From positions 240 through 64,239 of the forward strand of contig DASUAR010000218.1 of NCBI GenBank assembly GCA_035763685.1: a stretch of 64,000 bases of DNA, given 5' to 3'. Both the position numbers and the translations under genes were made by a program. The number at the start of each line of letters is the position of its first letter. Position 1 is the stretch's first letter. Under the pieces are notes generated by a model that saw only the letters and a program-made list of their open reading frames with translations, was not told the DNA's origin and searched no databases. This document shows, piece by piece, positions 1 to 16,551 of the stretch. Source of the stretch: Actinocrinis sp. (GTDB lineage Bacteria > Actinomycetota > Actinomycetes > Streptomycetales > Catenulisporaceae).

Positions 1-1
1 G

Positions 2-556
2 GGCGCGGTCGACGCGATCAAGCTGGCCAAGTCCAAGGGCTTCAAGGTCAACACCAACTCGACCTTCTTCAACAACGACACCCCGCAGGCCGTGATCGAC
101 GTCTTGGACTACCTCAACGACGAGTTGGGCGTGGACCAGATGATGATCTCCCCGGCCTACGCCTACGAGAAGGCCCCGGACCAGGATCACTTCCTCGGTG
201 TCACCCAGACCCGCGAGCTGTTCAAGAAGGCCTTCGCGAACGGCAACCGCAAGCGCTGGCGGCTGAACCACTCCCCGCTGTTCCTGGACTTCCTGGAGGG
301 CAGGAAGGACTTCCAGTGCACCGCGTGGGGCATCCCTTCCTACTCGCTGTTCGGTTGGCAGCGGCCGTGCTACCTGATGAACGACGGGTACGTGAAGACC
401 TATCGGGAGCTGATCGAGACCACCGAGTGGGAGAAGTACGGGCGCGGCAAGGACGAGCGCTGCTCGAACTGCATGGCGCACTGCGGCTACGAGCCGACCG
501 CCGTTTTGGCCACCACCTCCTCGCTCAAGGAGTCGCTGCGCGCGATGCGGAGCTGA
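2..556 (+). CDS. hpnH: Adenosyl-hopene transferase HpnH (radical SAM), C-terminal part; truncated by window start
   Basis: Frame open from the window edge; characteristic segments SPAYAYEKAPDQDHFL, CTAWGIPSYSLFGWQRPCYL and C-terminal CSNCMAHCGYE. Confidence 0.88.
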   Translation, partial: GAVDAIKLAKSKGFKVNTNSTFFNNDTPQAVIDVLDYLNDELGVDQMMISPAYAYEKAPDQDHFLGVTQTRELFKKAFANGNRKRWRLNHSPLFLDFLEGRKDFQCTAWGIPSYSLFGWQRPCYLMNDGYVKTYRELIETTEWEKYGRGKDERCSNCMAHCGYEPTAVLATTSSLKESLRAMRS

Positions 557-686
557 TCTCACCGGGTTTTCCCATCTGCTGAGATCAGAACGTTCAGGGC
601 TCTTTCAGACAGCGCGGTTAGGCTCGAAGAGACCCGGAACCAGCAGGGCGGTCGCCTGACGGCCGCACAAGGCACGGCGAGAGGCG

Positions 687-1760
687 ATGCGAGAACCCGA
701 CCCGCACCGCACGAGACGGTACAGGCAGCGGCGGCGCAGTTACGCCGCCGCCGCCCTGTGCTTGGGTATCCTCACGGCAGGCACTCTCGGTGCCTTCTAT
801 GCCGATCAGCGAGTAGACACGCACGGATCGACGAACACTGCACACACGACGCCCAGGGCGGTGCCCGCGCCACGCCCCGAGTCGAGCAGGGTCGCACAGC
901 TCAATCCGAGTGTTCCCCTGGCCCCGCAAAGCGCGCTGAAGATCGCCGCGCAGGCACCCGGCCAATCGGGCGGCTCCGGCACCGCTGCCTCGGCCTCGTC
1001 GCTGACCGGCGCCGCCGGCCCCAGCCTGGACTTCGGCGAGGCGCTTTCGGCGCAGCCCACGGGCTCGCCGATGTCCCGGTCCAATCCGCTGACCGGAACC
1101 GCGTTCTCCGGGCTGCCGCAGGTCGGCGCGTTGTTCGGTTATGACGGCACCTCCACCACGTCGCATTTCTGCTCAGGCAGCGTGGTCGCGAGCGACAAGG
1201 GCGACCTCGTGATAACCGCCGCGCACTGCGTGTACGACGAGTCGTCCGGTTCGCTCACCACCGACATCGCGTTCGTGCCTGGATACCACGACGGCCAGCA
1301 GCCGTACGGGGTGTGGACCGCTTCGCAGATCGTGGTCGCGCCGCAATGGCTCGACGACCAGGATCCCGACTACGACGTGGCGTTCGTGGTGGTGCATCAG
1401 CCGGGTTCGGCCCAGCGCATTCAGGACGCGGTCGGTGCGGACCAACTCGGCGTGGACGCGGACTTCGCCTCGCTCACCCAGGTCGTCGGCTACCCGAGCG
1501 ATACCGAGCAGCCGATCACCTGCACCGACTTCACGAAACAGTTCAGCCCCACGCAGCTGGAGTTCGACTGTCCCGGCTACCCGGACGGCACCAGCGGCGG
1601 GCCGTTCCTGACCGGGGTCGACCCGCAGGCCGGGGTCGGCAAGGTCGTCGGGGTGATCGGCGGTTATGAGACGGGCGGCGATAGCCCGGACGTGTCCTAT
1701 AGCGTGCATTTCAGCGACGCGATCAACACGCTCTTCCAGCGGGCCGAGGCGGCCGGCTGA
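687..1760 (+). CDS. Secreted or membrane-anchored trypsin-like (S1) serine protease
   Basis: Basic N-terminus plus hydrophobic stretch, Ser/Ala/Pro linker, triad motifs TAAHC, DYDVAF, GTSGGP. Confidence 0.88.
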   Translation: MREPDPHRTRRYRQRRRSYAAAALCLGILTAGTLGAFYADQRVDTHGSTNTAHTTPRAVPAPRPESSRVAQLNPSVPLAPQSALKIAAQAPGQSGGSGTAASASSLTGAAGPSLDFGEALSAQPTGSPMSRSNPLTGTAFSGLPQVGALFGYDGTSTTSHFCSGSVVASDKGDLVITAAHCVYDESSGSLTTDIAFVPGYHDGQQPYGVWTASQIVVAPQWLDDQDPDYDVAFVVVHQPGSAQRIQDAVGADQLGVDADFASLTQVVGYPSDTEQPITCTDFTKQFSPTQLEFDCPGYPDGTSGGPFLTGVDPQAGVGKVVGVIGGYETGGDSPDVSYSVHFSDAINTLFQRAEAAG

Positions 1761-1982
1761 TCCGCCGTCCGGCCAGGTGCCGGTGGCCGCGCGCCGGGTT
1801 CGCGCCCGGACGCTCCTTGCTTTTCTGCCGTTTCCACCCGATAAATGGAAGTCGAGGTGACCGGTTCGCCGGATAGAACACTTCAGCGACCAATCGCGCG
1901 ACCCACTGTCCTGACATGGAGGTGTGCTACCGTACCGATCACCCGACAAGAATCTGGGCACGCGCGAAACGGCGGCACCGCG

Positions 1983-4100
1983 ATGGCCTCTACCGCACGC
2001 GACCGGCCGTGGCCCGCCACATTGACGCTGGGTCCGGACGGACGGATCACCTCCTGGAGCCGGGGTGCCCAGGCGCTGTTCGGTCTTTCAGCTGCCCGGG
2101 CTTGCGGGCGGCGGCTTCGCTCCCTGCTGGTGCGACCCGAGGACCGCGCCACGGTCGACGAGTTGTTCGGCTCGGTCCTGGCCGGGCGCAGCTGGTCCGG
2201 TGCCCTCCCCCTGCTCGACGCCGACGGGCGCGCGCATCCCGTCGAATGCGGCTGGCAGCCGATCCAGGACCGCCGCGGCCGCCCCGGTGCGCTGATCGTG
2301 GTCACCGATCGCGCCGACCTGCCCGAGAACGAACCGGCCACCGGCGATGCGCCGCTGGGTACCGCGCACGCCGCGCTCGAGGCGATCAGCCAGTTCCAGG
2401 AACACGCGGCGACCGTGGCGATGATGCGCCGGGTGCAGCTGCTCACCGACGCGAACACGATGATCGGCTCGACCCTGGACATGGCCGCGACCGCCGCCGA
2501 ACTGATGGACGTCGCGGTTCCGCGCTTCGCCGACTCGGCGAGCGTGACCGTGCTCGAGTCGGTGGCCGCGGACTTCGAGCTGCCGGACCGGCCCGCGGGC
2601 AGCGGTACCGTGCTGCGGCGCCTGGCGGCGGCCCCGTTCGGCCGCGACGGCGCGGAGGTCTTCCCGGTCGGCGGCACGGTCACCTACCAGCCCGGCACGC
2701 CGCTCGCGCAGGCGCTAGCCACCGGCCGGTCGCGCACGTTGCCGAACATAGACGCGGTGATGGCCGAGCGGATCGCCACCGGGCTCGGCGACGAGGCCGC
2801 CGCAGTATTCGCCGGCAAGTCGCTGATGATCGTGCCGCTGGTGGCGCGCGGCGCGGTGCTCGGGCTCGCGATCTTCGCCCGGGACGCCAGCCGGCGTCCC
2901 TTCTCCCCCGGTGAAGGCGTGCTCGGCGAGGAACTGGCCGCGCGGGCTGCCCTGTGCATCGACAACGCGCGGCTTTACTCGCATGAGCGGCAGACCGCGC
3001 TGATGCTCCAGCGGGCGCTGCTGCCGGACGACTCCGGCTACCACGCGGGCATCGACATCGCGCACCGCTACCTGCCCGCGAGTGACCTGACCGGCGTCGG
3101 CGGCGACTGGTACGACGTGATCGGGCTCGGTGGCGGCCGGGTGGCCCTGGTGGTGGGCGACGTGATGGGGCACGGGGTGCGCGCGGCGGCGGTCATGGGC
3201 CAGTTGCGCACCGCGACCCGGACGCTGACCGCGCTGGACCTGCAACCGGCCGAGGTGTTGCACCACCTCGACGAGCTGATGGAGCACCTGGGCGGTTCGC
3301 TGGCCACCACCCACTTCGCCACCTGCATCGTGGCCGTGTACGACCCCACGGCGCAGACGGTGCGGATCGCGCGGGCCGGGCACGTGCCCCCGCTCGCGGT
3401 CTGGCCGGACGGGCGCACCGAACAGCTCGACCTGCCACCCGGCGTGCCGCTTGGCGTCGGAGGGCACACCTTCGAAAGCCGCGACATAGCACTGCCCGAC
3501 GGCAGCCTGCTCATCCTCTGCACCGACGGCCTCGTGGAGAGCCGCGCGCCGGGCCGCGACATCGACGACGGCCTGCGCGACCTGGCCGACGGCGTAAAGG
3601 ACCCCACGATGGCCCTTGAAGCCATCGCGGACGGGCTGATCTCGGGGCTGCGCGGCGACCGCACCCTCGACGACGCGGCGCTGCTGGTGGCCCGCGTACG
3701 CGGGATACCCTCCTCGTCCACGGTGGAGTGGACGGTGGTGCCCGAGCCGCCGGCCGTGGCGCAATCGCGGCGCACGGTGCGCGCCGCACTCGGCGGGTGG
3801 GGACTCGGACAGCTCGGCGACACCGCGGAGTTGCTCACCAGCGAGCTGGTCACCAATGCTCTGCTGTACACCGAGGGGCCGATCAGCGTACGGCTGATGC
3901 GTGACAGAACCCTGTTATGTGAGGTCTATGACGGTTCGGAGACCGTGCCCCGGCTGCGCGCCGCCGCGGACGACGACGACGGTGGCAGAGGTCTGCATCT
4001 GGTGAAGGAACTCTCCAGCCGCTGGGGAACCCGGCGCACCACCACCGGCAAAACGGTCTGGTTCGAGCTGCGACTCGACCCCGCGCTGCCCGACTTCTGA
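1983..4100 (+). CDS. PAS-GAF-SpoIIE (PP2C)-HATPase multidomain phosphatase/regulator
   Basis: PAS (ITSWSRGAQALFG), GAF (IDNARLY), SpoIIE motifs VGGDWYD, GDVMGHG, CTDGL, DDAA; HATPase ELVTNA and GGRGL; start moved to ATG 1983. Confidence 0.92.
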   Translation: MASTARDRPWPATLTLGPDGRITSWSRGAQALFGLSAARACGRRLRSLLVRPEDRATVDELFGSVLAGRSWSGALPLLDADGRAHPVECGWQPIQDRRGRPGALIVVTDRADLPENEPATGDAPLGTAHAALEAISQFQEHAATVAMMRRVQLLTDANTMIGSTLDMAATAAELMDVAVPRFADSASVTVLESVAADFELPDRPAGSGTVLRRLAAAPFGRDGAEVFPVGGTVTYQPGTPLAQALATGRSRTLPNIDAVMAERIATGLGDEAAAVFAGKSLMIVPLVARGAVLGLAIFARDASRRPFSPGEGVLGEELAARAALCIDNARLYSHERQTALMLQRALLPDDSGYHAGIDIAHRYLPASDLTGVGGDWYDVIGLGGGRVALVVGDVMGHGVRAAAVMGQLRTATRTLTALDLQPAEVLHHLDELMEHLGGSLATTHFATCIVAVYDPTAQTVRIARAGHVPPLAVWPDGRTEQLDLPPGVPLGVGGHTFESRDIALPDGSLLILCTDGLVESRAPGRDIDDGLRDLADGVKDPTMALEAIADGLISGLRGDRTLDDAALLVARVRGIPSSSTVEWTVVPEPPAVAQSRRTVRAALGGWGLGQLGDTAELLTSELVTNALLYTEGPISVRLMRDRTLLCEVYDGSETVPRLRAAADDDDGGRGLHLVKELSSRWGTRRTTTGKTVWFELRLDPALPDF

Positions 4101-4123
4101 GGGACACTTCGGTCGCGTGTCCC
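4101..4123 (+). terminator. Short hairpin after the SpoIIE gene stop
   Basis: GGGACAC-N9-GTGTCCC. Confidence 0.4.
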
Positions 4124-4228
4124 AGTGTTGTAACGGGCCTACTACCTTGTACCCCAACACCCCTAGGCTCCCTCTATCACGAATTCGCGTGACACCACAC
4201 CTTGGGAAAGAAGGGTGAGGTTGCACAG

Positions 4229-4363
4229 GTGAGCCTCAAGCCCGGTCGCTTCAGAGTGGCCCTGTTCGCAATGGTGCTGCTCGCGGGATTGTCATGGGCC
4301 GATCATAATGGCTGTTATTATTCGCTCCGCACCCCCACCGGGACGAATAGCAGCATCATCTAA
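4229..4363 (+). CDS. Putative 44-aa small secreted or membrane peptide (absent from ORF track)
   Basis: GGTGAGG 8 nt before GTG; MSLKPGRFRVALFAMVLLAGLSWA-DHNGCYYSLRTPTGTNSSII*; followed by an intrinsic terminator; low GC3 weakens the call. Confidence 0.45.
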   Translation: MSLKPGRFRVALFAMVLLAGLSWADHNGCYYSLRTPTGTNSSII

Positions 4364-4390
4364 GTCAGCCTGGCAGACATCCCCTCAAGG

Positions 4391-4438
4391 CCTGCCGATC
4401 CGTCTCCAGCTACCACAGCTGACGGATCGGCAGGTTTT
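4391..4438 (+). terminator. Intrinsic terminator
   Basis: Perfect 14-bp stem CCTGCCGATCCGTC / GACGGATCGGCAGG followed by TTTT. Confidence 0.7.
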
Positions 4439-4587
4439 GCTCGTCTCAGGCTTGTTCGACCACATTTGAGCATTATCTTGTCCTTGGGTGGGAATCAGAA
4501 CTCTGGTTGCCACCTGCCACAGAGTGCCACGATACGGTTGCGCTTGGTTTCGACGCAAGCTGCGCGATGAGGCTTTTGGGGGCGGGG

Positions 4588-6774
4588 ATGCGCGAGATCG
4601 GCTGTGAGGTCGGCGGCGAAACCGGCTGGATAGGCAGTGGTTCACACAACGAGCTATCCGGGCACGTGACCGGCCCGGTTGTTCAGGCTCGGGTGATCAC
4701 CGGCGGGATACACGTGAACGCGCTCGCCGCCGGGGTGCCGGAGCGCACTCCACGCCAGTTGCCGCCTGACGCCGCGATGTTCACCGGCCGCGCGGAAGAC
4801 CTGGCGGCCCTCAACTATGCCTGGGCGCGCGCCCTGAGCGACAGCGTGGGCGCGCTCTTGGTCGTCTGTGGTACCGCCGGTGTGGGCAAGTCCGTCCTGG
4901 CCGTGCGTTGGCTGCGCCAGCACACTGACACCTTCTCCGATGGGCACCTGTACGCCGATCTCGGCGGGTACTCCCCCGGCGGACCAGTGCCGCCGCAAGA
5001 GGCCGCGGGCGCGTTCCTGCGCGCTCTGGGCGTCGACCCGGCGTCTGTGCCTGACACACTGGCCGAACGCGTAGCGCTGCTGCGCAGCCTGACTGCCGAT
5101 CGGCGGATCGGCGTGCTGTTGGAGAATCCGGTATCCGCAGCGCAGGTACGTGCCCTGGCACTGACCGGTCCCGGGTGCGCCACCGTGGTCACCGCACGGC
5201 AGGCTCTCAGTGGCCTGGCAATGGACGGCGCGCGCGTGCACCGGCTCGAGCCGTGGCGGCCGGAAACCGCGGTGCGGCTGATGGAACGCATGCTCGGGGA
5301 AGACCGGGTCTCCGCCGAACCCGCACAGGCTCTCGAGGTGGCGCGTCTATGCGGCGGGCTGCCGCTCGCCGTGGGCGTGGCCGGCGCGCGGCTGGCCGCC
5401 CGGCCGCGCTGGCCGCTGGCGCGCCTCGCCCGCGCCCTGGCCGCCGATTCCGAACGCCTCCAAGCGCTCTCTCTCGATGAGGAGCACGCAGTACGTCCCG
5501 CGCTCGACGGCTCGTATCGCGCGCTTCCCGAGCTACAGCAGCGCCTCTACCGGCTCTTGGGCTTCAGCCCCCTGCGTTGGTTCGACCTGTCCACCGCCGC
5601 TGCGGCCGCAGGGGCCGAACACGACGAAGGCGTGGAGGAACATCTCGACGCGCTGGTCGACGCGAGCTTGCTCGAAGAGCTGACCGATCGCTACCGGTTC
5701 CACGACCTGGTACGGGTTCATGCGGCTGACTGCGCGCGCCTGGAGGAGCCCGAACCGGAACGAGCCGCGGCGCTCACCCGCATCATCGACTTCTACCTGC
5801 ACACCGCCACTCGCATCGAGACCGCACTCACCCCGAGCCACCGGCTGCTCGAACGCGACTACCGTTTCGCCACGCCCGTCGTGCTCGGCTTCCTCGACGA
5901 AACCGCGAGCCTGGACTGGCTCGACGCGCAGCGACCGAACCTGATGGCGCTCCTGCGCTACGGCGCGGTGCACCGCCGTCACCGTCAGACCTGGCGGCTC
6001 GCCTACGCCATGTGGCCGCTGTTCCTGCGCCGCCGCTATCCCGACGAGCGACTCGAAGCCCAGACCCTCGCCCTGCAAGCCGCCCGCGCCGAAGGACACC
6101 GCATCGCCGAGGGCAACCTGCTCACCTCCCTCGCCGGGACACTTGCGACGGCCGGTCAGCTGCCCGAAGCCGCCGAATACAATCGCCAGGCGCTCACGGT
6201 GTACGACCAGCTCGGCGACCAGCGCGGACTGGCTCAGGCCTGCAACGGCCTCGCGAAGATCCACCTCGAGATGGGCGAGCTACCGCAAGCCGAGCAGCTT
6301 TTCGAACGCGCCCGCCAGATTCGCGCCGCCATCGGCTACCAGCGTGGCGTCTACCTCTCGCACCAAGGTCTAGGCCGCGTCGCCAGCGCTCGTGGCGACA
6401 CCCGCACCGCGGCCTGGCACCTGCGTCGCGCCTATCGCGGCCTGACCCGTCTCGGTGACCACTACGACGCAGCCTGGTCCTTGGCTCTGTGGGCGCAGAG
6501 CGTCGCGCAGCGCGGGCAACCCCGTCGTGCGCTGCGCCTGCTCGATCGGGCGCAAGCCGCGATGCGCCAAGCCAGCTCCCCGCACGGACAAGCCGGCGTG
6601 CACGAGATCACCGGACAAATCCACCTGCAAACCGGCAACCCGATCACGGCACGCGAGCACTACGCGACGGCAGCGCAGCTGTTCTCCGGCATCAACCCGC
6701 GCGCCGAGACCCGCGTGCAAGCGCGCCTCACCGATCTCGGGGACCGGCCGCCCGAAGGCGAATTCCAACCCTAA
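4588..6774 (+). CDS. NLR-like STAND protein: short amyloid-like N-terminal motif, NB-ARC, TPR repeats
   Basis: NELSGHVTGPVVQARVITGGIHV; PRQLP; Walker A GTAGVGKS; Walker B variant VLLEN; GGLPLA; YRFHDL; TPR-like helical repeats; start uncertain (4507, 4567 or 4588). Confidence 0.9.
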   Translation: MREIGCEVGGETGWIGSGSHNELSGHVTGPVVQARVITGGIHVNALAAGVPERTPRQLPPDAAMFTGRAEDLAALNYAWARALSDSVGALLVVCGTAGVGKSVLAVRWLRQHTDTFSDGHLYADLGGYSPGGPVPPQEAAGAFLRALGVDPASVPDTLAERVALLRSLTADRRIGVLLENPVSAAQVRALALTGPGCATVVTARQALSGLAMDGARVHRLEPWRPETAVRLMERMLGEDRVSAEPAQALEVARLCGGLPLAVGVAGARLAARPRWPLARLARALAADSERLQALSLDEEHAVRPALDGSYRALPELQQRLYRLLGFSPLRWFDLSTAAAAAGAEHDEGVEEHLDALVDASLLEELTDRYRFHDLVRVHAADCARLEEPEPERAAALTRIIDFYLHTATRIETALTPSHRLLERDYRFATPVVLGFLDETASLDWLDAQRPNLMALLRYGAVHRRHRQTWRLAYAMWPLFLRRRYPDERLEAQTLALQAARAEGHRIAEGNLLTSLAGTLATAGQLPEAAEYNRQALTVYDQLGDQRGLAQACNGLAKIHLEMGELPQAEQLFERARQIRAAIGYQRGVYLSHQGLGRVASARGDTRTAAWHLRRAYRGLTRLGDHYDAAWSLALWAQSVAQRGQPRRALRLLDRAQAAMRQASSPHGQAGVHEITGQIHLQTGNPITAREHYATAAQLFSGINPRAETRVQARLTDLGDRPPEGEFQP

Positions 6775-6787
6775 TATGCACCACGCC

Positions 6788-7201
6788 TCAGGGCTCGAAA
6801 GCACGCCGAACCTCTCGAAGCCTGAGCCGAATCGTCGGTTCATCGACCAACGCGACGCCCGTCAACGCCCAGGGCTCAATTCCGGCAGCGAGCGACGCGT
6901 GCACCGCCGAGCCGAACAGCGGCAGCGCATTGACGCTGTGCACGATGTCCGCACCGCTGTACAGCACATGGATGTGCTCGCGCCAGCGCGCCGCCACCAG
7001 GAGCCGGTCCCGCTCGGCCATCGCGGCGCACACCGCAGCCCCCGGATACGCTTGTAGCACCCTGACGATGTCCGCCGAGTCCGCGACGAGATCGACGAGG
7101 TAGAGCACGTCGCTGCAGCCTCGCCAGGCGGCGCGCGCATCGCAGTCCGCGCACAAGCAGACAACCTCGTCTGCCCGTGCTTCGACCGGCATCGCGATCA
7201 C
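6788..7201 (-). CDS. Hypothetical 137-aa protein, Cys-rich N-terminus
   Basis: GTG start overlaps the TGA of the upstream gene (GTGA coupling); CLCADC motif; no family recognised. Confidence 0.6.
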   Translation of the reverse strand: MIAMPVEARADEVVCLCADCDARAAWRGCSDVLYLVDLVADSADIVRVLQAYPGAAVCAAMAERDRLLVAARWREHIHVLYSGADIVHSVNALPLFGSAVHASLAAGIEPWALTGVALVDEPTIRLRLREVRRAFEP

Positions 7202-8424
7202 GACGCCACACCTGCTCGCGGTACGCCGCTGAAATCGTCCAACCTGGCGGGCAGGAGCGCAGCAGGAAGGCTGGCGGGAGTGGCGGGCTGGCCCATTTCG
7301 AGCAAGCCGTAGAGCAAGCGCCGGGCATGCCTCGCGAACCCGCCCGGTTCCGAACTGATCAACGCAGCGACCCGCGTCATTGCGTCGGCGTCGAAAGCGT
7401 CGGCCGCATACTCAAGCTGCGCCGGGATGGGGGCGCCGTCACTCAACCGGGGAGCCAGCGCGCCAAGTGCTGCGGCTCCGCTGTGCGGATGCACGTCTTG
7501 CTGCGGGAACGCGCCGAGTAGAACCGGTACACCGGTCGCCGCCCCGTACAACGTGACTGAACCGTGGTCGCCGATGATCCAGTCAGCCGCAAGAAGTAAC
7601 GGCTGCCAGTCCGCCTCCGGTCCCGCAACAACCAGACCACGGGCCGCATAAGGGGCGAGCCAAGCGCGCAGTTGGTATTCGCCGTGCGCCGCCCAGATAT
7701 TCGGGTGGGTCAGCAGCACGACTCGGTAGTCGGGCTCGGGCAGCTCACGTACCAGCCGCTCGAGTAGCGGCGTGGCGCTTCCGAGCAGCGAGTTCGGACG
7801 CCAGGTGGAGGTGACCACCACCAGCCGTTGCCCCGGCCCGAGCCCGAGCGCCGAACGATAGCTCTCCCGCATGCCGCCACCAGCGATCAGCCGGTCGTAG
7901 CACGGATCGCCGACTACCTGCGCGACCGGTAGCGCCTGCGGACAACCCTCCTCCAGCAGTTGCAGCTCCCTGTCGTGCCCCAGCGCCAGCGCGCTGGGAA
8001 CGAGCATCCCCCCGCGAATCAGTTCACTCGGTGAGAACCCGAGCACCGGGCCCACGACCGGAAGCGCTCCACGACGACGCGGGCGCGCCAGGGAATTACG
8101 GCTAGCGCCATGGGAGAACACTGCGACAGGAGCGTCAATGCTCTCGATGTGCCCGAAATTCGCGGTCACCGCCAAGTCAAAGGACTCCCGCACGGCGTCC
8201 TCCCACGGCACCAACGGCGCGCCTCGCGCGGCCAGCATCCGCACGGCGCCCCGGTTGAACACGTTGGGCGGCACCGTGAACACCAATTGCACGCGCAGGT
8301 CGCCCTGCAGCAGCGCGGCGATATCCATCAGTCGTTTGATGCTCGTCATCGTCGGGGCCATCACCAGCACCCGTCGCGTCGCGCGCACGGTCGCCCACCA
8401 GTGGCACGAATCCGCAGCCATCAT
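7198..8424 (-). CDS. GT-B fold protein resembling TagF/TagB CDP-glycerol glycerophosphotransferases
   Basis: GAGGAG RBS; motifs in TagF order: FSHG, VGDPCYDRL, TSTWR, THPN, ADWIIGDHGSV...GVPVLL. Confidence 0.72.
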   Translation of the reverse strand: MMAADSCHWWATVRATRRVLVMAPTMTSIKRLMDIAALLQGDLRVQLVFTVPPNVFNRGAVRMLAARGAPLVPWEDAVRESFDLAVTANFGHIESIDAPVAVFSHGASRNSLARPRRRGALPVVGPVLGFSPSELIRGGMLVPSALALGHDRELQLLEEGCPQALPVAQVVGDPCYDRLIAGGGMRESYRSALGLGPGQRLVVVTSTWRPNSLLGSATPLLERLVRELPEPDYRVVLLTHPNIWAAHGEYQLRAWLAPYAARGLVVAGPEADWQPLLLAADWIIGDHGSVTLYGAATGVPVLLGAFPQQDVHPHSGAAALGALAPRLSDGAPIPAQLEYAADAFDADAMTRVAALISSEPGGFARHARRLLYGLLEMGQPATPASLPAALLPARLDDFSGVPRAGVAS

Positions 8425-8514
8425 CGTCTCCTCATCCGACCTGTGGGCACCGCCGCAGCAGGGCCTAGCTCGCGGCGCCCAAATGCCTGTCGCGATGAAG
8501 ATTCCGCGCGTTCC

Positions 8515-8562
8515 TGCAAGTCGCTTGCACGGGCTTGACGTTGCGCTTACACGGTTTACGAC
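8515..8562 (-). promoter_or_regulatory. Candidate SARP/winged-helix binding array upstream of the TagF-like gene
   Basis: Minus strand GTAAAC, GTAAG, GTCAAG, TGCAAG at about 10-bp spacing, plus palindrome TGCAAG-N3-CTTGCA (8515-8529). Confidence 0.4.
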
Positions 8563-8579
8563 GCCGACGGTCCGGCTTG

Positions 8580-11500
8580 TCAGCCCGGGATGAGATCCGC
8601 GTCCGGGTGGTCGAGTTGCCGGTAGAGTTCCGCGGCGCGGCGCCAGTGCTCCCGCGCCCCGGTTTCGTCATGGTCCGCAGCGCAGATATCGCCGAGGGCG
8701 TGGAGCACCCGCGCCTGTTCAAGCAGCGCAGCCGCGCGTTGCGCGTAAGTGAGCGCAGTCTGGAGAGACTCGACCGCCTCGGCGCGGTTGTTGCGAGCAC
8801 CCTGCAGCTGCCCGGCGACCAAATGCAGACGCGCTTGGCGCAGCGGGTCATTGAGCTGCGCGGCGAGTGCGAAGCCGCGGTCGATGTGCGCCGCCGCTTC
8901 ATCGAGGCGTGCTACGCGAATACGGGCACCGGCCAGGTGCACGAGAGTGTCTACCAGGTTGCGTCCGTCGCCCAGCGCTTGGAAGAGGCGTAAGGCGTCA
9001 TTGAAGGACTCAAGCGCTTCGTCGAGATTGCCCAGTCGATCGTGCACAGCGCCGATGTTGTTGGCCAGGACTGCGAGATTATGCGGGTCCGCGAGGCGTT
9101 GCGCGAGCAACTGAGCCGACCGGAAGCAGCCAAGCGCCTCCTCGAATTGGCCGCTGAGCCGGTGCATTTCGCCGAGGTTGGTCAGCACGTCGCACTCGAG
9201 AGCGTGGTCGCCATCCGCTCGCGCGGTCTGTACCAGGCGCTCGGCCCATTGCAGCGCCTCTTCGGCGTTGCCGAGTTCGAACTTGATGATGCTCAGGTGG
9301 TAGTCGGCGACAACCCGGCCGCGTCGGTCCCCGATCTGTTCGTGGAGTTGTGAGGAGCGGCGGTAGGCGTCGTGGGCGGCGGCCAGCCGCCTGGCGTACC
9401 AGTGAATGCGGCCGATCTCGAGCAGAGCGTCGGCCTGTCCCCGCTTGTCGCCGTGTGCGCTCCAGACGTCCAATGCGGTACTGGCCCAAGACAAGGCCGC
9501 GTCGAGCTGGCCGGTCCGTACCAGAGCCGCGGCCAGGTCGGTGGTGAGCTGCGGGATCACCGCGTCGTCGAGATCTGCCGCGGTTGCGGCTGTAGCGGCG
9601 GTAGCGGCGATTTCTCGCGCCTGTCGCAGCATCTCGGCGGCGGTGCCCCAATTGCCTCGGCGGTCCAGGTGCTGGGCCAGGGCCAGCGGCAGAAGCGCGG
9701 CGTGCTGCCGGTAGCGGTGCTGGTACGCGTACGCGGCGATCGCGATGATGTTGTCGCATTCCCGGTCGAACCAGTGCTGAGCGTCATCGACGTTCTCGAT
9801 GGCCGGTAAGGGCGTCACGGTGGATTTCACCGTCTGGCCGAGCACGCGCCGGTAGGGGCGCAGCGTGTGTTCGGCGCGTACGGCAGCGGCCAGATAGTAA
9901 TCAAGTGCTCTGGCGCATGCCTGCTGCGTGGCGAGCTGATCGCCTTCCAGGTTTATCCGGGCGAGCGCGAATTGCCGGGTCAGGTCGTGCAGGCGGTAGC
10001 GGTGCCGCTCGGTCTCTTCCGAGAGGTGCTGCTCGACCAGCTCGTCGGCGGCGAGACTCGTGGCTGTCAGATCGGCGCTCAGTAGCGCGGCCGCGGCGTG
10101 CACCCCGATTTCCTGGCCGGGATGGGCCGCGAGCCGGCGCAACAACGTACGACTGAGTTCCGGAAGCGCTTGGTAGGACGCGGTGAATGCCGCGTGTATC
10201 GGTCCCGTCAAACTGTCGGTGGCGGTGGCGGTGGGAGCGATGACATCAAGCCGATCGACGAGATCTGCGAGCGTCCATTGCGGGCGGCCGCGCAGGAAAG
10301 CGGCGCTCATGCTGATCGCCAGCGCGAGTCCGGCGCAGCGGCGAACGTAGCGGGCCAGGTCTTCGGTTTGTTCGGCGAATTCCCGGCCCGTGATGCGTTC
10401 GAGCAGCGTCTGCGTGGCTTTGTGAGAGAGCAGCCGAACCGTGTGATGGCGAGCGTCGGTGACCCCGGCGAGCCGATGTCGGGAGGTGAGCAGCACGATG
10501 CTGCCGGACGTGGTCGGCAGCAGCGGAGCGATTTGCTCGGCATTGGCGACGTCGTCGAGCAGGAGTAGCAGCCGTCTGCCGCTCGTGCGGCGACGCCATA
10601 GCGCGGCGAGAGCATCGAGACTGTCGGTGCGACCGAGTTCGGCGGGCGGGACCGCGACGTCCTCAAGAAGTCGAGTCAACGCCTCGCGCGCGCTGAGTGG
10701 AGGCTGATGCAGGTCGTGCGCACGCAGGTTCAGCTGTAGCGCCCCATCCGAGCAGTGCGCACGCAGGCGCCGCGCGGCCCGCACCGCCAATGCGGTTTTG
10801 CCGACACCGGGCATGCCGTCGAGGGCGCATATCGCGACGCTTGGCATGGTTCGCAGGTCGCGTTCGATCGCGGCGAGCAGGTCGGATAATTCCTCATCGC
10901 GCCCGACGAGGTGCGGCGGATCGCGGTCGATCGTGTCGGGCGCGGGAACGGCGGGTGTCGGCTGAAGCGAGGTGCCCAGGGCCAATCCGGGCTCACCACG
11001 CAGGATGCGCTGGTGGAGCGCCTGTAATTCGACGCGCGGATCCACCCCCAATTCGTCGCGCAGCCGGTCGCGCGTGCTGCGGTAGGTGGCCAGCGCCTCG
11101 TCTTGCCGGCCGACGTCGCTGAGGGCGCGCATGAGCAATCCGACGGCGGTTTGATCGATCCGTTGTTCCCCCGACAACCTGATCAGTTCACTGATCAGGT
11201 CATCGCGGTGCCCGCCGAGGCGAAGGTCCAGTTCGATCCGCGTCAACGTGGCGCTACGCCGGCGCTCGGCCAGCGCCTGCCGGGTGGCCTCGACCCAGCC
11301 ACCGCCCAGCCCGCCCAGCGCGTCGCCCCGCCAGAGTTTCTCCGCTTCGCGCAGGAGCGTGCGCGCCGACTCGGGATCGGGCTTACTCGCCGCCGCCCGA
11401 GCGCGAACAATGAGACGTTCGAAGCGACGAAAGTCGACTTGTTCGGTCCCCACGTCGAGCCGGTATCCACCCGGGCCGCTATTGCCGATAAGGCCGACGT

Positions 11501-11735
11501 CATCACCGGCCGCTTTCAGGCGGCCGCGCAGCCGTGACAGGTAAACCTGTAAAGTTTCGCGAGCCTTCTGCGGCGGCCGATCATCCCACACGCGATCGGC
11601 GAGCGTGTGAGCTGACACGGCCCGCCCGGCTTCGAGCAGCAGGACGGCCAGGACCTGCTGCTCCTTGAGCGTTCCAGCAGAATACTGCCGATCTTCATTC
11701 CACAATTCGATCGGCCCGAGCACGCGGAAATACAC
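8580..11735 (-). CDS. AfsR/SARP-family regulator (wHTH-BTAD-NB-ARC-TPR)
   Basis: FRVLGPIEL, LQVYLSRLR, LWRGDAL, LRDELGVDP; Walker A GMPGVGKT; LLLLDD; YRLHDL; TPRs. Confidence 0.94.
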   Translation of the reverse strand: MYFRVLGPIELWNEDRQYSAGTLKEQQVLAVLLLEAGRAVSAHTLADRVWDDRPPQKARETLQVYLSRLRGRLKAAGDDVGLIGNSGPGGYRLDVGTEQVDFRRFERLIVRARAAASKPDPESARTLLREAEKLWRGDALGGLGGGWVEATRQALAERRRSATLTRIELDLRLGGHRDDLISELIRLSGEQRIDQTAVGLLMRALSDVGRQDEALATYRSTRDRLRDELGVDPRVELQALHQRILRGEPGLALGTSLQPTPAVPAPDTIDRDPPHLVGRDEELSDLLAAIERDLRTMPSVAICALDGMPGVGKTALAVRAARRLRAHCSDGALQLNLRAHDLHQPPLSAREALTRLLEDVAVPPAELGRTDSLDALAALWRRRTSGRRLLLLLDDVANAEQIAPLLPTTSGSIVLLTSRHRLAGVTDARHHTVRLLSHKATQTLLERITGREFAEQTEDLARYVRRCAGLALAISMSAAFLRGRPQWTLADLVDRLDVIAPTATATDSLTGPIHAAFTASYQALPELSRTLLRRLAAHPGQEIGVHAAAALLSADLTATSLAADELVEQHLSEETERHRYRLHDLTRQFALARINLEGDQLATQQACARALDYYLAAAVRAEHTLRPYRRVLGQTVKSTVTPLPAIENVDDAQHWFDRECDNIIAIAAYAYQHRYRQHAALLPLALAQHLDRRGNWGTAAEMLRQAREIAATAATAATAADLDDAVIPQLTTDLAAALVRTGQLDAALSWASTALDVWSAHGDKRGQADALLEIGRIHWYARRLAAAHDAYRRSSQLHEQIGDRRGRVVADYHLSIIKFELGNAEEALQWAERLVQTARADGDHALECDVLTNLGEMHRLSGQFEEALGCFRSAQLLAQRLADPHNLAVLANNIGAVHDRLGNLDEALESFNDALRLFQALGDGRNLVDTLVHLAGARIRVARLDEAAAHIDRGFALAAQLNDPLRQARLHLVAGQLQGARNNRAEAVESLQTALTYAQRAAALLEQARVLHALGDICAADHDETGAREHWRRAAELYRQLDHPDADLIPG

Positions 11736-11905
11736 TCAAGCCCCCTCGGTGCGTGCACGACACTCCCCCGGTGTCCATGCTCGCACCCGAACCGAATCAG
11801 GGTCCAGAGTCGGCGGGAGCCCGAAACGAATTTCACGCTCCCCAGTACGCGCCCGCGCCGCCGCATTTGCCGCGGAATTCGCATCGGCAACTTCAAGTGC
11901 ATTTG

Positions 11906-12412
11906 CTATTCGCGCGGAGCGGGGCTCAGTATCACAGCGCGCCGCACCGCGTTTGCCCAGGCCAGCAAGCCAATAGGCCGGGGATGTCCTTGCCCTGACT
12001 CCCACCGGGAGATCGACCAACGATTCACACCAAGCTCAGCAGCCACATCTCCCTGCGAGCGGGCTTGAGCCAGCCGCGCCGCATGCAACGCGAGGGCCAG
12101 CTCCCGCATTTCGTATTCATCCCATGAGTCATGCATTTCAGGCCCAGATGTCTGATACCGCAGCGGTTCCCGGCCCCGCTCGGTGACGCGCAGAACGAGG
12201 TTCAGGGCATGGGCCCATCGGATCAGGTGAAACATCGTGGGGCTGTCCCGTCCCACCTCCCAATCGACGATCGAGCCCGGCGTGACGCCGAGGCGCTCGG
12301 CCAGCAGCCGCTGCGGTAAATTGTCGTGATTCGAACGCGCGATCTTGAGTTCGTGCACGAGTGCGTTCAATTCCGCACGAGTCCGTGCATCGACTCGAAG
12401 AGCCATTGCCAC
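11906..12412 (-). CDS. Tandem XRE-type helix-turn-helix protein
   Basis: Two HTH_3-like units: QRLLAERLGVTPGSIVDWE and QGDVAAELGVNRWSISRWESG. Confidence 0.82.
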   Translation of the reverse strand: MAMALRVDARTRAELNALVHELKIARSNHDNLPQRLLAERLGVTPGSIVDWEVGRDSPTMFHLIRWAHALNLVLRVTERGREPLRYQTSGPEMHDSWDEYEMRELALALHAARLAQARSQGDVAAELGVNRWSISRWESGQGHPRPIGLLAWANAVRRAVILSPAPRE

Positions 12413-12508
12413 ACCTCGTAAAGTCGGGCCATCCCGTCGCGCCCATGCCCATTGGGCAAGTCGCTCAATCCTCTGATGCTGTCGGTGGATCGGCCGGTCG
12501 TTATCTGC

Positions 12509-13861
12509 TCACTGTCCATCCAGCCTTTCCGCGACGCGGCGGGCCACCACCGAGGCCCGGTAGGGGGTGAGGAGCGGGTGCAGCCTGCGCAGCTTGCGCC
12601 GGGCGAGCGTCACCTCCAGCGCCTCGGCCAGGTCCGCGGCCTCGAAGGCGGTCTGCGCCACCAGATCGAGCTGGCCGACCCGCGCCGCCGCGCAGGCCAC
12701 CTCGGCCAGCACGATCGAGCGGGACTTGACCTGCTCGTGGCCGAGGCTGCGCATCGCCCACTCGGCGGCGTCCATGGCGGCCCGCGCGTCGCCGAGCCTG
12801 CCGTGCACGTTCGCCGTCATCGCCGCCAGCAACTTGACGTCGAAGCCGCGGGTCCACGGCAACGTGTCGTCGTCGGGGACCGGCTGTGGCAGATCAGAGC
12901 CCAGCTTCAGTGCGGTTTCGAGCTCTGATAATGCGGCGGCCCGTTCGCCCAGTTGCGCGGCCTCCTCCGCCGCGCGCGCCGACATCCACGCGCGGGCGCG
13001 GCGGTCCGGGCCGGCGTGCGACATCGCGGTGTGCGCCAACTGCCAGGCGGTCGCCGGATCGCCGCGTTCGGCCGAGGAGTACGACAGGTACGTCAGAACG
13101 CAGGCGAGCAGCGGGTTGTCCGCGGCATAACGCGAAGCAGCCAGCGCGCTGTCCCAGTACCGCAGCGAACCGGTGGCGTCGCCGCGGTCGAACGCCAGCC
13201 AGCCGGCCAGGGCCGCCGATCGCCCGCCCGCCGCGGCCAGCCGCTTGCGCAGCGGCTCGCGCCGGGTTCCGGCCAGCAGCGCGGAGATGTCGTCGAGATG
13301 CCGGGCGACCGCGCCGATCAGGGTTCGCGCACAGCGGTGATGTTCGAGGGCGAATAGTCGCGACGTGTTCGTCTCGACGATGGCTATCGCCTCGAAATCG
13401 GCCTGCCCCGGCCGTTCCAGCGCGAAGCGCAGGCGGTCGCCCGGCTCTGCGGCCGGGCCGGCCGGCGGCAGCTCCTCGGGCGCCCGCCGGGGCAGCGGGC
13501 CGACGAGCGTGCCGGCCAGCCGCCCGGTCAGCAGCGGGGCGTCCGGAAGCGGGGGCGGGGAGCCGGAGAAGCCGAGTTGCTCGTACGGCGTGCGGGTCAC
13601 GGCCTGCAAGGCCCGCTTGTAGTTCGGGCGGCACTCAGTGTGTTCGCCCGACTCCCACTTCTGCACCAATCGTTTGTTGCAAGTATTCGGCTCGCCGAGC
13701 ACCCCTCCCGCGTGGCGGACGGCGGAGGCGAACTCGCTCTGGCTCATCCGCATCGCGAGGCGGATCGCTTTGAGCGTATGGTTTGGCACGCGCTGTGCGG
13801 CTGGTACGGTCACGAGGGTGACAGTAGGGCCCTGAGTGACACCGTGTGGTACGAGAGTCAC
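12509..13861 (-). CDS. XRE-HTH plus TPR-like regulator (NsdA-like architecture)
   Basis: MSQSEFA...RLVQKWESG HTH; LAGWLAFD helical C-terminal region. Confidence 0.82.
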   Translation of the reverse strand: MTLVPHGVTQGPTVTLVTVPAAQRVPNHTLKAIRLAMRMSQSEFASAVRHAGGVLGEPNTCNKRLVQKWESGEHTECRPNYKRALQAVTRTPYEQLGFSGSPPPLPDAPLLTGRLAGTLVGPLPRRAPEELPPAGPAAEPGDRLRFALERPGQADFEAIAIVETNTSRLFALEHHRCARTLIGAVARHLDDISALLAGTRREPLRKRLAAAGGRSAALAGWLAFDRGDATGSLRYWDSALAASRYAADNPLLACVLTYLSYSSAERGDPATAWQLAHTAMSHAGPDRRARAWMSARAAEEAAQLGERAAALSELETALKLGSDLPQPVPDDDTLPWTRGFDVKLLAAMTANVHGRLGDARAAMDAAEWAMRSLGHEQVKSRSIVLAEVACAAARVGQLDLVAQTAFEAADLAEALEVTLARRKLRRLHPLLTPYRASVVARRVAERLDGQ

Positions 13862-13954
13862 TCTTTGGTGTTGAAGCTACGCCCCAGCTGTCCCCTTGAT
13901 ACGCCGTAACTACGCTGGGGACGGGGTTATCTCAACCCGCTGGCACCCGGCTGC

Positions 13955-15436
13955 TCACCGCAGCGAGCGCATCCACTCCTCGATCTCGTCGGCGTGGCGC
14001 GGCAGTGCGGCGGAGAGGTTTTCGTTGCCGTCGGCGGTGACGAGGATGTCGTCCTCGATCCGCACGCCGATGCCGCGATACTCCTCGGGCACGGTCTCGT
14101 CGTCGCGCTGGAAGTAGAGCCCTGGTTCGACGGTCTGCACCATGCCGGGCCGCAGCGTGCCGTCGACGTACTCCTCGCAGCGCGCGTCGGCGCAGTCGTG
14201 CACATCGAGGCCGAGCATGTGCCCGGTGCCGTGCAGTGAGTAGCGGCGCTGAAGACCGAGTTCGAGCACCCGCTCAAGCGGTCCTTCCAGCAGGCCCCAT
14301 TCGATCAGCCGCTCGGCCAGCACCCGCTGCGCCGCCTCGTGGAAGTCCCGGTAGTTCGCGCCCGGCTTCACGGCGGCGATACCGGCCTCTTGCGCGTCGT
14401 AGACGGCGTCGTAGATCCGCCGCTGGATCTCGCTGAACTCACCGGAGATCGGCAGCGTGCGCGTGACGTCCGCGCTGTAGAGCGCCTCGGTCTCGGCGCC
14501 GGCGTCCAGCAGCAGCAGCTCGCCGGGACGCACCGCGCCGTTGTTCCGGGTCCAGTGCAGCACCGTCGCGTTCGGCCCGGCGGCGCAGATCGAGTTGTAG
14601 CCGACGTCGTTGCCCTCGACCCGGGCCCGGCGCCAGAACGTGCCCTCGATCCAACGCTCAGACGTCGCGACCGCCGCCGCCAGTTCGCGTACGACGTCGG
14701 TGAAGCCGAGCGTGGTGATCTCACAGGCCCGGCGCAGCTGCTCGACCTCCCAGTCGTCCTTGACCAGGCGCAGGCCGTGCATGAAGACCTTCAGCTCCTC
14801 GTCGAGCCGTTCCGCCGCGTCGGCCTCCTGACGGGATGTCACGCCCGCCTGCGCGAGCGCCGCGTCGAGCAGTGCGTCATGCCCGCTCATGATCCGGGTG
14901 ACCACGTCCGGCCGCGCCGCCACCGCCTCGGCGATGCGCTGCGCCGCCTCGCGGCTGTCCCGGATCTCCAGGCCCAGCTCGGCGGCGGCCTCGGTCAGCG
15001 AGCGACGGCGGCCGACCCACAGCTCGCCCTGGCCGTCCAGCCAGAACTCGCCGTTCTCCCGGTTCGAGCGCGGCAACAGATACAGGACCGCCTCATGCCC
15101 GCCGTCCGGCAAGGGCTCCAGGATGAGGACGCTGTTCTCGGTCTGATCAGCCGTCAGGTAGGCGTAGTCGCTGGCGGCGCGGAAGGTGTAGTCGAGGTCG
15201 TTGGACCGGGTCTTGAGCCGTCCGGCCGGGACGATGATCCGCTCGCCGGGGAAGGCGGCGGACACCGCCTTGCGCCGCTTGGCCGCGTAGCCGGACTGCT
15301 CCGACGGTTCCAGGTCGCGCCGCTCGGTGTCGCTCCAGCCGCGGCGCATCCCGTCCTCAAGCTCTTCGGAGATACCTCGGTAGAGCCCGTTCTTGCGACC
15401 CTTGACCGGCTTGTCGGGCTTGCGTTCCTCGCTCAC
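13955..15436 (-). CDS. pepP: Xaa-Pro aminopeptidase P (M24B)
   Basis: GGAGG plus GTG 15436; LLDAG, DVTRT, HGTGHMLGLDVHD, TVEPGLY, GVRIEDD. Confidence 0.93.
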   Translation of the reverse strand: MSEERKPDKPVKGRKNGLYRGISEELEDGMRRGWSDTERRDLEPSEQSGYAAKRRKAVSAAFPGERIIVPAGRLKTRSNDLDYTFRAASDYAYLTADQTENSVLILEPLPDGGHEAVLYLLPRSNRENGEFWLDGQGELWVGRRRSLTEAAAELGLEIRDSREAAQRIAEAVAARPDVVTRIMSGHDALLDAALAQAGVTSRQEADAAERLDEELKVFMHGLRLVKDDWEVEQLRRACEITTLGFTDVVRELAAAVATSERWIEGTFWRRARVEGNDVGYNSICAAGPNATVLHWTRNNGAVRPGELLLLDAGAETEALYSADVTRTLPISGEFSEIQRRIYDAVYDAQEAGIAAVKPGANYRDFHEAAQRVLAERLIEWGLLEGPLERVLELGLQRRYSLHGTGHMLGLDVHDCADARCEEYVDGTLRPGMVQTVEPGLYFQRDDETVPEEYRGIGVRIEDDILVTADGNENLSAALPRHADEIEEWMRSLR

Positions 15437-15548
15437 TGCCGAGCGCCTCCTAGACCGAGGATGGGTACGTGTACGGACCGGCAGCGTCGTGCGGTCCTTA
15501 TCGCAGCCTAGCGGCAAGTGCCGCGCCGTCCACCCCTCCCGGCCACGG

Positions 15549-15770
15549 TCAGGAGCAGCAGCCTCCGCCGCAGCACCCGCCACCCGCAGCCGGTCCGGCC
15601 GCCGCAGCGCCGGAGGGCTTGGCCAGGCCGCCGACCGCGATCATGGAGAAGAGCTTCACCGTGTCGCCGTGTCCCTCCGGGCATTCGATCGGCGCGGAGG
15701 CTTCGCTCATCGGGCGGGTCTTCTCGAAGGTGGCTCCGCACGAGCGGCAGCGGTATTCGTAGCGCGGCAT
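15549..15770 (-). CDS. FmdB-family zinc-ribbon protein
   Basis: MPRYEYRCRSCG...CPEGH, tail GGGCCGGGCCS; TAACCT 6 nt before ATG suggests leaderless mRNA. Confidence 0.88.
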   Translation of the reverse strand: MPRYEYRCRSCGATFEKTRPMSEASAPIECPEGHGDTVKLFSMIAVGGLAKPSGAAAAGPAAGGGCCGGGCCS

Positions 15771-15779
15771 ATCGTCAGG

Positions 15780-16541
15780 TTAGCGCGTCGCCGTGGCGGT
15801 CAGTTGTTGCTGCACGGTCTGGAACGGCACGCGGGAGACCGCGAACGCGCCGTCGAACTCGCTCTGCAGATCGATGACCAGTGCCAGCGCCGCGCCGACC
15901 ACGACGATCGTGACCACGATGCCGAGGACGCTCAGCGGCTCCGCGCGCGGCCCGAGCAGGAACGGGGTCAGCACGGTGGCGGCGCTGAGCAGCACGAGCG
16001 CGACGGTCAGGATGACGGGGTAGCTGCCGGCGAGCGACTTGCCGATGCGGTCGGCGCGCGCCGCGGAGAGGTCGTCGAGCACGGACAGCTCCTGGTCGCG
16101 CAGCGTGGTCTGCTGGTCGAGCGAGAAAGCGGTCGCCAGGTAGCTGCGCAGCCCGGTGATCGCGAACGCCGAGCCGCCGGCCGCCGCGAGGTCGGCGGGC
16201 GGCCATTCGCGGTCGAGCACGGCGGTGGTGTAATCGGTGACCGCGCTGCGCAGCGCGCCGCGGTCGGCCACGGGCAGACGCTGGCCGACCCAGACCAGCT
16301 GGGTGAGGTCCTGGCCTTCGGTGCGCACATCGCCGTTGATGTCGTCGAGGCGCTGCCAGAGCACGATGACGATGAAGGCGAGCAGGACCGTGTACATGGT
16401 GACCATGAACATGGCGACGTAGTCCGCGGCGGCCTCGGCCCGGCCGTGCTCGCCGCCGTGTGCGCGAATCCGCCTGCGCATGAGCACCGCCGCGACGATG
16501 AGGACCGCGACGGCGCAGGCGGTGAGCAGGATCGTGATCAT
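15780..16541 (-). CDS. DUF4239 / bestrophin-like membrane protein
   Basis: Four hydrophobic segments; YTVLLAFIVIVLW, REWP, ARADR, IDLQSEFDG match the family pattern. Confidence 0.75.
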   Translation of the reverse strand: MITILLTACAVAVLIVAAVLMRRRIRAHGGEHGRAEAAADYVAMFMVTMYTVLLAFIVIVLWQRLDDINGDVRTEGQDLTQLVWVGQRLPVADRGALRSAVTDYTTAVLDREWPPADLAAAGGSAFAITGLRSYLATAFSLDQQTTLRDQELSVLDDLSAARADRIGKSLAGSYPVILTVALVLLSAATVLTPFLLGPRAEPLSVLGIVVTIVVVGAALALVIDLQSEFDGAFAVSRVPFQTVQQQLTATATR

Positions 16542-16551
16542 CCGCGGCGTC

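Follow-up and report, generated by a model that had tools for sequence, protein, structure and literature searches.

What does a TagF-like enzyme do beside two NLR proteins? The question is raised by an 8.4-kb block of genes from Actinocrinis sp. (GenBank assembly GCA_035763685.1), which lies within a 64,000-nt stretch of contig DASUAR010000218.1 (hereafter, the window). The block encodes a predicted GT-B-fold enzyme (GT), a 137-aa open reading frame (ORF) coupled to it (X), an NB-ARC-TPR protein with an N-terminal BASS2-type amyloid signalling motif (NLR), an AfsR-like SARP fused to NB-ARC-TPR (SARP-NLR), and a double XRE-HTH protein (Table 1). All five ORFs are present where, and on the strands on which, the first-pass annotation of this DNA had placed them; the BASS2 motif, the PfkB origin of X, and a repeat switch in relatives go beyond it. 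We propose that the island is an armable cell-death switch, in which GT arms a suicide switch formed by the NLR and a Bell protein bearing BASS2, and we put the probability of this reading at about 0.5.

Composition and conservation of the module

GT homologues are numerous. At E ≤ 1e-10, 546 of 7,996 scored proteins and 1,216 representatives at 50% identity match GT, and homologues occur in at least 552 GTDB stretches and on seven plasmid records. Presence is patchy within the order (47 of 121 genomes) and amounts to 18 of 401 genomes for the class and 6 of 401 for the phylum, both counts including weak matches to distant TagF-type genes. One genome, G804, enters denominators only, and no claim is built on it. 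The nearest named relative is an Actinocrinis metagenome-assembled genome, with a GT identity of 89%.

Gene context was compared in two sets of loci. The first comprises the 80 best-matching GTDB loci of GT among the at least 552 stretches, which are mutual kin (the 80 closest loci); the second comprises 58 GT loci out of genome samples, some of them chosen because the GT match was split. Among the 80 closest loci, a plain NB-ARC-TPR gene is found in 78, SARP-NLR in 76, X in 76, a Bell-BASS2 gene in cis in 18, and a full-length PfkB gene in 11; of the two loci that miss the NLR, one stops at a contig end and the other is a true orphan. The 58 sampled loci contain the NLR in 51 by hidden Markov model and in one more by eye, X in 51, SARP-NLR in 6, Bell-BASS2 in 13, and PfkB in 2. 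The linkage of GT homologues to STAND-TPR genes, on which the first-pass annotation had staked its proposal, thus holds in both sets. Because the NLR and X are frequent in both sets while SARP-NLR is found in only 6 of 58 sampled loci, GT-X and the NLR constitute the core, and SARP-NLR is an add-on that belongs mainly to the window's clade. The module genes occur in three orders across the 80 closest loci. In a FastTree tree of 97 rows, built only from the GT region downstream of a variable loop, SARP-linked forms group with fused forms that bear a repeat tract (described below), with local support of 0.93. The double-XRE gene, which had also been counted in, is present in the block but is local, being shared with only the closest locus (L001, 1 of 80), and was therefore rejected as a core gene.

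GT carries five TagF-type motifs, namely H105-G106, G172-D173..D177, S206-T207-W208, H240-P241, and D286-x-G288-S289; tested against the TagF-type pattern (HG, GxPRxD, PTWR, H(Y/P), DYSS), all five are present in the same order. Across 130 GT sequences with a mean column identity of 27%, H105, G106, D173, D177, H240, D286, and S289 are each at least 90% conserved. Following the work on TagF, we take the histidine of the HG motif to be catalytic; titles of TagF H444N structures are among the PDB matches. Sequence searches of the PDB with GT gave no match. The AlphaFold model of GT (predicted local distance difference test, pLDDT, 91.8) has a GT-B fold, and its top structural matches are TagF (Z 21.9, root-mean-square deviation 3.6 Å, 326 residues aligned) and hydrolysing UDP-GlcNAc 2-epimerase (Z 21.2). 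The modelled fold is tied between these two, and sequence evidence breaks the tie towards TagF. Specifically, hhalign gives a probability of 80 for GT against a TagF-type protein confirmed by Pfam, in an alignment that pairs the C-terminal TW and D-x-x-S motifs, and of 5.6 against one UDP-GlcNAc 2-epimerase (PF02350); 1 of 50 members of the GT alignment matches PF02350 (E 0.05), and 12 of 50 match PF04464 at E ≤ 0.1. One of 24 distant proteins scores above the PF04464 cut-off, and ESM Atlas neighbours of GT carry PF04464. The earlier label of TagF-like is favoured by structure, although GT itself scores 16.9 bits against PF04464, below the cut-off of 22.1. No teichoic-acid or capsule genes are found among the recurrent neighbours of the 80 closest loci, and, as annotated before, the ORFs of window positions 1..20000 (Pfam on nine ORFs, the remaining ORFs judged by eye) include neither teichoic-acid nor biosynthetic genes. 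Two homologues have N-terminal fusions that are possible clues to the substrate, to a GT4 glycosyltransferase (P0148) and to a D-2-hydroxyacid dehydrogenase (P0124).

X is probably a pseudokinase remnant of a PfkB-family kinase. It matches PfkB with an hhalign probability of 97.6 and aligns with the linked PfkB proteins over their C-terminal half; the GAGD catalytic motif of these proteins is absent from X. The structure model of X (pLDDT 83) retrieves PfkB-family structures weakly, with the acarbose kinases AcbK/Mak1 as the top match (E 0.11). The full-length PfkB neighbours, which retain GAGD and adjoin GT, match Pfam PfkB, and their closest PDB entries are again AcbK/Mak1 (E 1e-7). In 96 of 150 distant representatives, GT has a C-terminal tail of at least 90 aa; the X profile matches 59 of these tails and the PfkB profile 36, and the tail profile matches full PfkB genes at about 1e-20. 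Such fusion suggests that GT and X are one functional unit. The cysteines of X, singled out in the first-pass annotation, are not conserved in the X family, and a reading of X as a Cys-rich metal-binding protein was rejected on this ground. At L127:9198-11524, a basal GT is divergent from an intact PfkB gene, beside an integrase-like ORF and without an NLR; this is possibly the ancestral enzyme pair.

The plain NLR is marked by its N-terminus. The set to which its motif conforms (C02; Table 1) is identified as BASS2 from the index ranges of C01-C03 (210, 317, 145), which fit the table sizes of BASS1-3 (210, 329, 145). A strict regular expression for BASS2 matches 78 of 78 linked NLRs of the 80 closest loci versus 1 of 78 SARP-NLR controls. 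In the second set it matches 19 of 51 NLRs; inspected by eye, most of the negatives begin with either a diverged form of the motif or a Bell-like fusion, and most NLRs without BASS2 have the fused Bell-like N-terminus instead (11 clear cases by eye). A BASS3/RHIM label for the motif was rejected against the published sets; the G-phi-Q-phi-G signature is absent. The NLR probably starts at the ATG at 4588, with which a start codon of L001 is aligned, and the sensor arginine is intact. Besides the window's NLR, NB-ARC-TPR genes occur at about 14 further loci of the genome, often fused to a SARP, and by profile BASS2 is found only in the window's. In the family to which the window belongs, many motif-bearing NLRs have no GT match on the same contig.

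Pfam gives no match on the motif and leaves the small helical Bell partners unnamed. These were called Bell without a profile, because they fit what Dyrka et al. describe, namely proteins of 120-140 aa with an acidic residue at position 2-3 and a motif at the C-terminus (10.1101/2020.01.06.895854). L132 and L133 are compact loci of the form Bell > NLR >< GT-X. In genus g2, a Bell match at E ≤ 1e-37 is found in 6 of 6 GT-positive genomes, four of which are in the query, and a match at E ≤ 1e-30 in 0 of 16 GT-negative genomes. In the window's own genome (G000, an assembly 73.5% complete), the C-terminus of a Bell-BASS2 protein lies at a contig end (G000:C312:22826-22963, minus strand), and near-identical orphans are found in two relatives. 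Orphan Bell-BASS2 genes with no NLR nearby occur in L130, L131, L135, L136, L138-L142, and L145. Another Bell protein of this genome carries a motif of the BASS1 type, and downstream of its gene (G000:C165:12067-12513, minus strand) comes a long ORF. At L134:5822-5911, a BASS2 motif opens a short non-NLR ORF beside a Bell-BASS2 gene.

SARPs bind direct repeats spaced by 11 bp, and a repeat of this kind lies upstream of GT (Table 1). Exact 6-mer repeats upstream of GT are found with 11-nt spacing in 19 of 80 loci and with 22-nt spacing in 27 of 80, and inside GT in 3 of 81 and 7 of 81, respectively. Of 82 SARP-linked loci, 67 have the SARP-box-like pattern, compared with 3 of 55 other loci (about one expected from shuffles), a count that is circular in that the pattern was derived from the counted loci; the contrast with SARP-less loci is not circular but follows phylogeny, and kin are not independent. 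The near-restriction of the repeat to loci with a SARP gene indirectly supports the earlier claim that SARP-NLR induces the GT operon, and from it we infer SARP control of GT-X. SARP-NLR itself has the architecture of AfsR and scores 381.7 bits against the AfsR equivalog NF053617 (cut-off 1430). A lead to the TPR protein HaaT of cyclophane ribosomally synthesized and post-translationally modified peptides (NCBIfam; 245 and 305 bits, cut-off 1125) was dropped, as radical-SAM and precursor genes are not recurrent among the neighbours.

The repeat tract in relatives and the island in the window

In relatives outside the 80 closest loci, GT often contains a perfect tract of 5-8-nt units. The tract is present in 29 of 63 such loci, 14 in frame and 15 out of frame; of the 34 tract-less loci, one is broken and one is not judgeable. 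It starts 22-35 nt past the HG codon (52 nt in one case), and at least nine different unit sequences, varying with the lineage, occur at this one fixed site. A hand count of 72 listed GT loci, of which 52 were read and one was left out, found the tract in 20, 10 in frame and 10 out, and 18 of 269 GT proteins have in-frame repeats at the tract site. No tract is found in the 78 scorable loci of the 80 closest, in 502 control windows, or in the window's block, and the window allele does not qualify as a simple-sequence-repeat (SSR) contingency gene. Only two tract-bearing loci in the tree have a SARP gene.

Over 1,900 nt, the plasmid alleles L189 and L190, both from S. anthocyanicus, are distinguished by a single base and by eight units (a 56-nt gap), with 17.6 copies out of frame in L189 and 9.6 copies in frame in L190. 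The frame difference was observed between assemblies or alleles. Among loci with GT out of frame, at least 10 still match the NLR over its full length, and four of these 10 have Bell in cis, indicating that cells live without GT. Viable OFF alleles beside full-length NLRs in turn suggest that GT arms the switch rather than restrains it.

The codons just before the tract have a third-position AT content of 0.52 versus 0.12, and −10-like AT-rich codons lie directly upstream of it in L146-L157, L160-L171, and L186-L190. Several assemblies break at the tract site, and assembly error could be behind some frameshifts in draft genomes. The L189 and L190 plasmids retain just a remnant of the NLR next to GT-X, and not far away is a 7-kb gene whose annotation names a toxin glutamine-deamidase-domain protein. 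A search of sequencing runs matched at least half of the query words in four DNA datasets and no more than small shares of them in RNA runs, which is no evidence of expression. Repeat-driven phase variation in Streptomyces was not found described in the literature searched, which excludes subscription papers.

In the window, the module lies in an accessory island (Table 1), as indicated by four relatives (G794, G788, G810, and G805) in which the SpoIIE-type and NsdA-like genes are 180-580 bp apart; G797 has the same content at this site. The atypical codon use reported earlier is borne out, with G+C content at third codon positions (GC3) of 0.68-0.82 for the five block genes versus 0.84-0.95 for seven flanking genes; a crude genome-wide GC3 background was discarded because of contamination by wrong-frame ORFs. 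The NsdA-like gene was rejected as a core gene (1 of 80 loci) and is a conserved flank; its arrangement beside SpoIIE-type and aminopeptidase P genes is conserved in the family. The 3' end of the SpoIIE-type gene (window 4020-4100) is duplicated in G800 (C101:8292-8374), other relatives carry different DNA at this site, and it is likely an integration hot spot. Rfam and ARAGORN scans gave no match.

Table 1. Positions of the module, its elements and its flanks in the window
Feature	Position	Strand	Remarks
SpoIIE-type phosphatase gene	1845..4100		flank of island
Accessory island	4101..12508	.	between SpoIIE-type phosphatase gene and NsdA-like gene
19-bp inverted repeat	4386..4439	.	5' of NLR; also in L001; terminator-like or regulatory
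NLR, BASS2-NB-ARC-TPR	4507..6774	+	Walker A and HD intact; likely start 4588
BASS2-type amyloid signalling motif	4645..4716	+	NLR N-terminus; pattern of set C02, supplement 1 of PMC8086366
X, probable C-terminal half of PfkB-family kinase	6788..7201	-	GAGD missing; overlaps GT by 4 nt, translationally coupled
GT, predicted GT-B-fold protein	7198..8424	-	five TagF-type motifs in order; no repeat tract in window allele
Hexamer direct repeat, 11-bp spacing	8513..8529	-	SARP-box-like; ~90 nt upstream of GT
SARP-NLR, AfsR-like SARP(wHTH-BTAD)-NB-ARC-TPR	8580..11735	-	no BASS motif; nucleotide-binding motifs intact; 5 TTA codons
Double XRE-HTH protein	11906..12412	-	within island; outside conserved module
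NsdA-like gene, NsdA-family TPR-like regulator	12509..13861	-	NF053720 score exceeds cut-off

Proposed mechanism and competing explanations

The 2020 account of Bell/BASS/NLR pairs in filamentous bacteria names no known trigger in the text available (10.1101/2020.01.06.895854). In E. coli, killing by Bell is part of the Bab/Agp antiphage system (10.1101/2024.11.07.622273). In the switch that we propose, SARP-NLR would bind the 11-bp repeat and switch on GT-X; in SARP-less relatives, the slipping repeat tract would set GT on or off, a change of frame that is seen between alleles. GT and X, fused in many homologues, would act as one unit, in which GT, by its likeness to TagF motifs, may use a nucleotide donor to transfer a polyol-phosphate or a sugar-phosphate, and X may be a vestigial docking or ligand domain. 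The product of GT, or its modified target, would be read by the TPRs of the NLR under infection or damage, which is the weakest step. By analogy to the published pairs, the NLR would then oligomerise, its BASS2 motif would template the Bell-BASS2 protein, encoded elsewhere in this genome, and Bell would permeabilise the membrane of that hyphal compartment. The self-contained circuit of the first-pass annotation is probably wrong, since the known partners of the NLR's amyloid motif are Bell proteins and none is encoded in the island.

A wider form of this reading is more tentative. The island may represent an undescribed, widespread immune pathway of actinomycetes, in which a novel type of signal from a TagF-fold enzyme (a polyol- or sugar-phosphate mark) licenses an amyloid NLR to kill through Bell. 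Arming might be transcriptional, through a second NLR, or stochastic, through slipped-strand phase variation at one fixed site in units re-invented many times, so that a mycelium hedges its bets between suicide-competent and disarmed hyphae.

Several observations weigh against the proposed switch. The window, its island included, has no Bell gene, none is detectable in cis in 62 of the 80 closest loci, and the trans candidate on C312 is cut by the contig end, beside a transposase-like ORF, in an incomplete assembly. In the Walker B motif of the window's NLR, E replaces the D that is found in 75 of 77 loci. GT-linked NLRs that have lost the Walker A lysine are mostly all-in-one Bell-NB-ARC-TPR proteins (the lysine is replaced by threonine in L147, L153, L158, L161, L162, L164, L167, L168, and L170), and the linked NLRs of L165, L181, and L185 have neither BASS motif nor Bell. 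GT homologues without an NLR nearby are found in L003, L091, and L127. No cytidylyltransferase gene lies near GT at the five loci tested, and no GT homologue was found among 50,697 phage records. Around 35 loci, 127 flanking genes were compared with PADLOC models; no more than 12 match, mostly by generic domains, with JetA (L047) as the only convincing defence gene, indicating that GT loci are mostly not residents of defence islands. In the published experiments covered by the text available, BASS1 and BASS3 were tested and BASS2 was not among them (10.1101/2020.01.06.895854). The tie in the modelled GT fold and the circularity and kinship in the SARP-box counts, given above, belong here as well.

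Four other explanations were weighed. First, GT-X could be a bait that mimics cell-wall polymer enzymes, with the NLR binding the protein and firing when an invader tampers with it, and catalysis dispensable. The degeneration of X to half a kinase would suit a decoy, as would the one-to-one linkage of GT and NLR, which survives rearrangements and paralogues, and the TPRs, the most variable part of the NLR (median identity 35% versus 52%). However, conservation of the catalytic-type residues at 90% or more goes beyond what a decoy needs, and we consider this explanation unlikely.

Second, GT could write a chemical mark for kin or self/nonself discrimination, with NLR-Bell killing compartments after contact or fusion with the other ON/OFF type. 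In fungi, het loci cause killing after fusion of unlike types. ON and OFF alleles of GT coexist at about 1:1, the spread described above is patchy and includes plasmids, association with defence islands is poor, and Bell/NLR pairs are typical of filamentous bacteria (10.1101/2020.01.06.895854). The window's own clade, without the tract and with a likely inducible promoter, fits such discrimination poorly, and we give it a small chance.

Third, the two STAND regulators could control a non-lethal cassette of enzymes acting on a sugar-like small molecule, either to modify or to detoxify it, much as the STAND regulator MalT responds to maltodextrins. The housekeeping nature of the flanking genes, the full PfkB genes with GAGD beside GT, and the closeness of these to acarbose kinases all point this way. 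Such a cassette leaves unexplained why the plain NLR, which has no DNA-binding domain, bears an invariant amyloid motif or a Bell fusion, and why the kinase is usually reduced to its non-catalytic half; its chance is also small.

Finally, an antidote role, in which GT keeps the NLR quiet, for example by modifying Ser/Thr of BASS2, and its loss leads to death, would fit the toxin-antitoxin-like tight linkage and the Ser/Thr-rich motif but is very improbable given the out-of-frame GT loci that keep a full-length NLR, some with Bell in cis.

Relation to known systems

With a near-obligate enzyme partner that has natural ON/OFF alleles, three or four genes are enough for a direct test of how actinomycete NLRs are activated and whether they kill. 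If true, the proposed switch would provide a function for a large family of orphan GT-B proteins, would point to repeat-driven phase variation in Streptomyces, and would mean that an AfsR-type regulator controls an immune-like rather than a biosynthetic operon. In keeping with the earlier statement that no characterised system with this gene set was known, PADLOC 2.0 gave only generic TPR and HTH matches on the window and none on GT or X, and no account of the gene set or of the tract was found in the literature within coverage, which leaves out subscription papers.

Phase-variable glycosyltransferases with SSRs are found in host-adapted bacteria, in which the number of units in a tract within the coding sequence sets the frame. 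The tract-bearing relatives resemble these in their perfect tract within the coding sequence that sets the frame. They differ in being soil actinomycetes, in their units, which are 5-8 nt long and of at least nine different sequences while the site stays fixed, and in that GT is tied to an NLR and not to surface glycan synthesis; the window allele has no tract. With AfsR-type SARPs (NF053617), SARP-NLR shares the order wHTH-BTAD-NB-ARC-TPR and an 11-bp-spaced direct repeat upstream of the likely target, but that target, instead of afsS or a biosynthetic cluster, is the GT-X operon of two genes. GT resembles TagF/TarL and TagF-like capsule polymerases (PF04464) in its GT-B fold and in five motifs that share their order and are similarly spaced. 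Unlike them, it falls below the family cut-off at about 14% identity, has Tyr293 where the TagF-type protein has Asp, has no teichoic-acid genes nearby, and is fused or coupled to a PfkB remnant.

The GT4 glycosyltransferases of STAND conflict systems in multicellular bacteria (PMC8195603) likewise tie a glycosyltransferase to STAND NTPases, but belong to another GT family and are usually fused to the STAND protein; amyloid, PfkB, and SARP are not mentioned in the available part of that account. In Bab/Agp, an amyloid motif also links a sensor to a Bell-type death domain; the motif there is BASS11, the sensor is not an NLR, there is no enzyme partner in the description available, and function was shown there (10.1101/2024.11.07.622273).

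Like the Bell/NLR pairs of filamentous Actinomycetota (10.1101/2020.01.06.895854), the module has an N-terminal BASS motif on an NB-ARC-TPR protein, and its relatives have Bell-BASS2 neighbours or all-in-one Bell-NLR proteins. Unlike in those pairs, the constant neighbour here is GT-X, with Bell in cis in 18 of 80 loci, and the module goes further in having another NLR of the SARP type, the remnant of a PfkB kinase, and a repeat switch. The terms glycosyl, SARP, BTAD, and AfsR do not occur in the main text of that paper, whose Table S2 may list some pairs. The module is real and conserved, is apparently undescribed, and would extend Bell/BASS/NLR amyloid signalling by an enzyme gate under transcriptional or repeat control.

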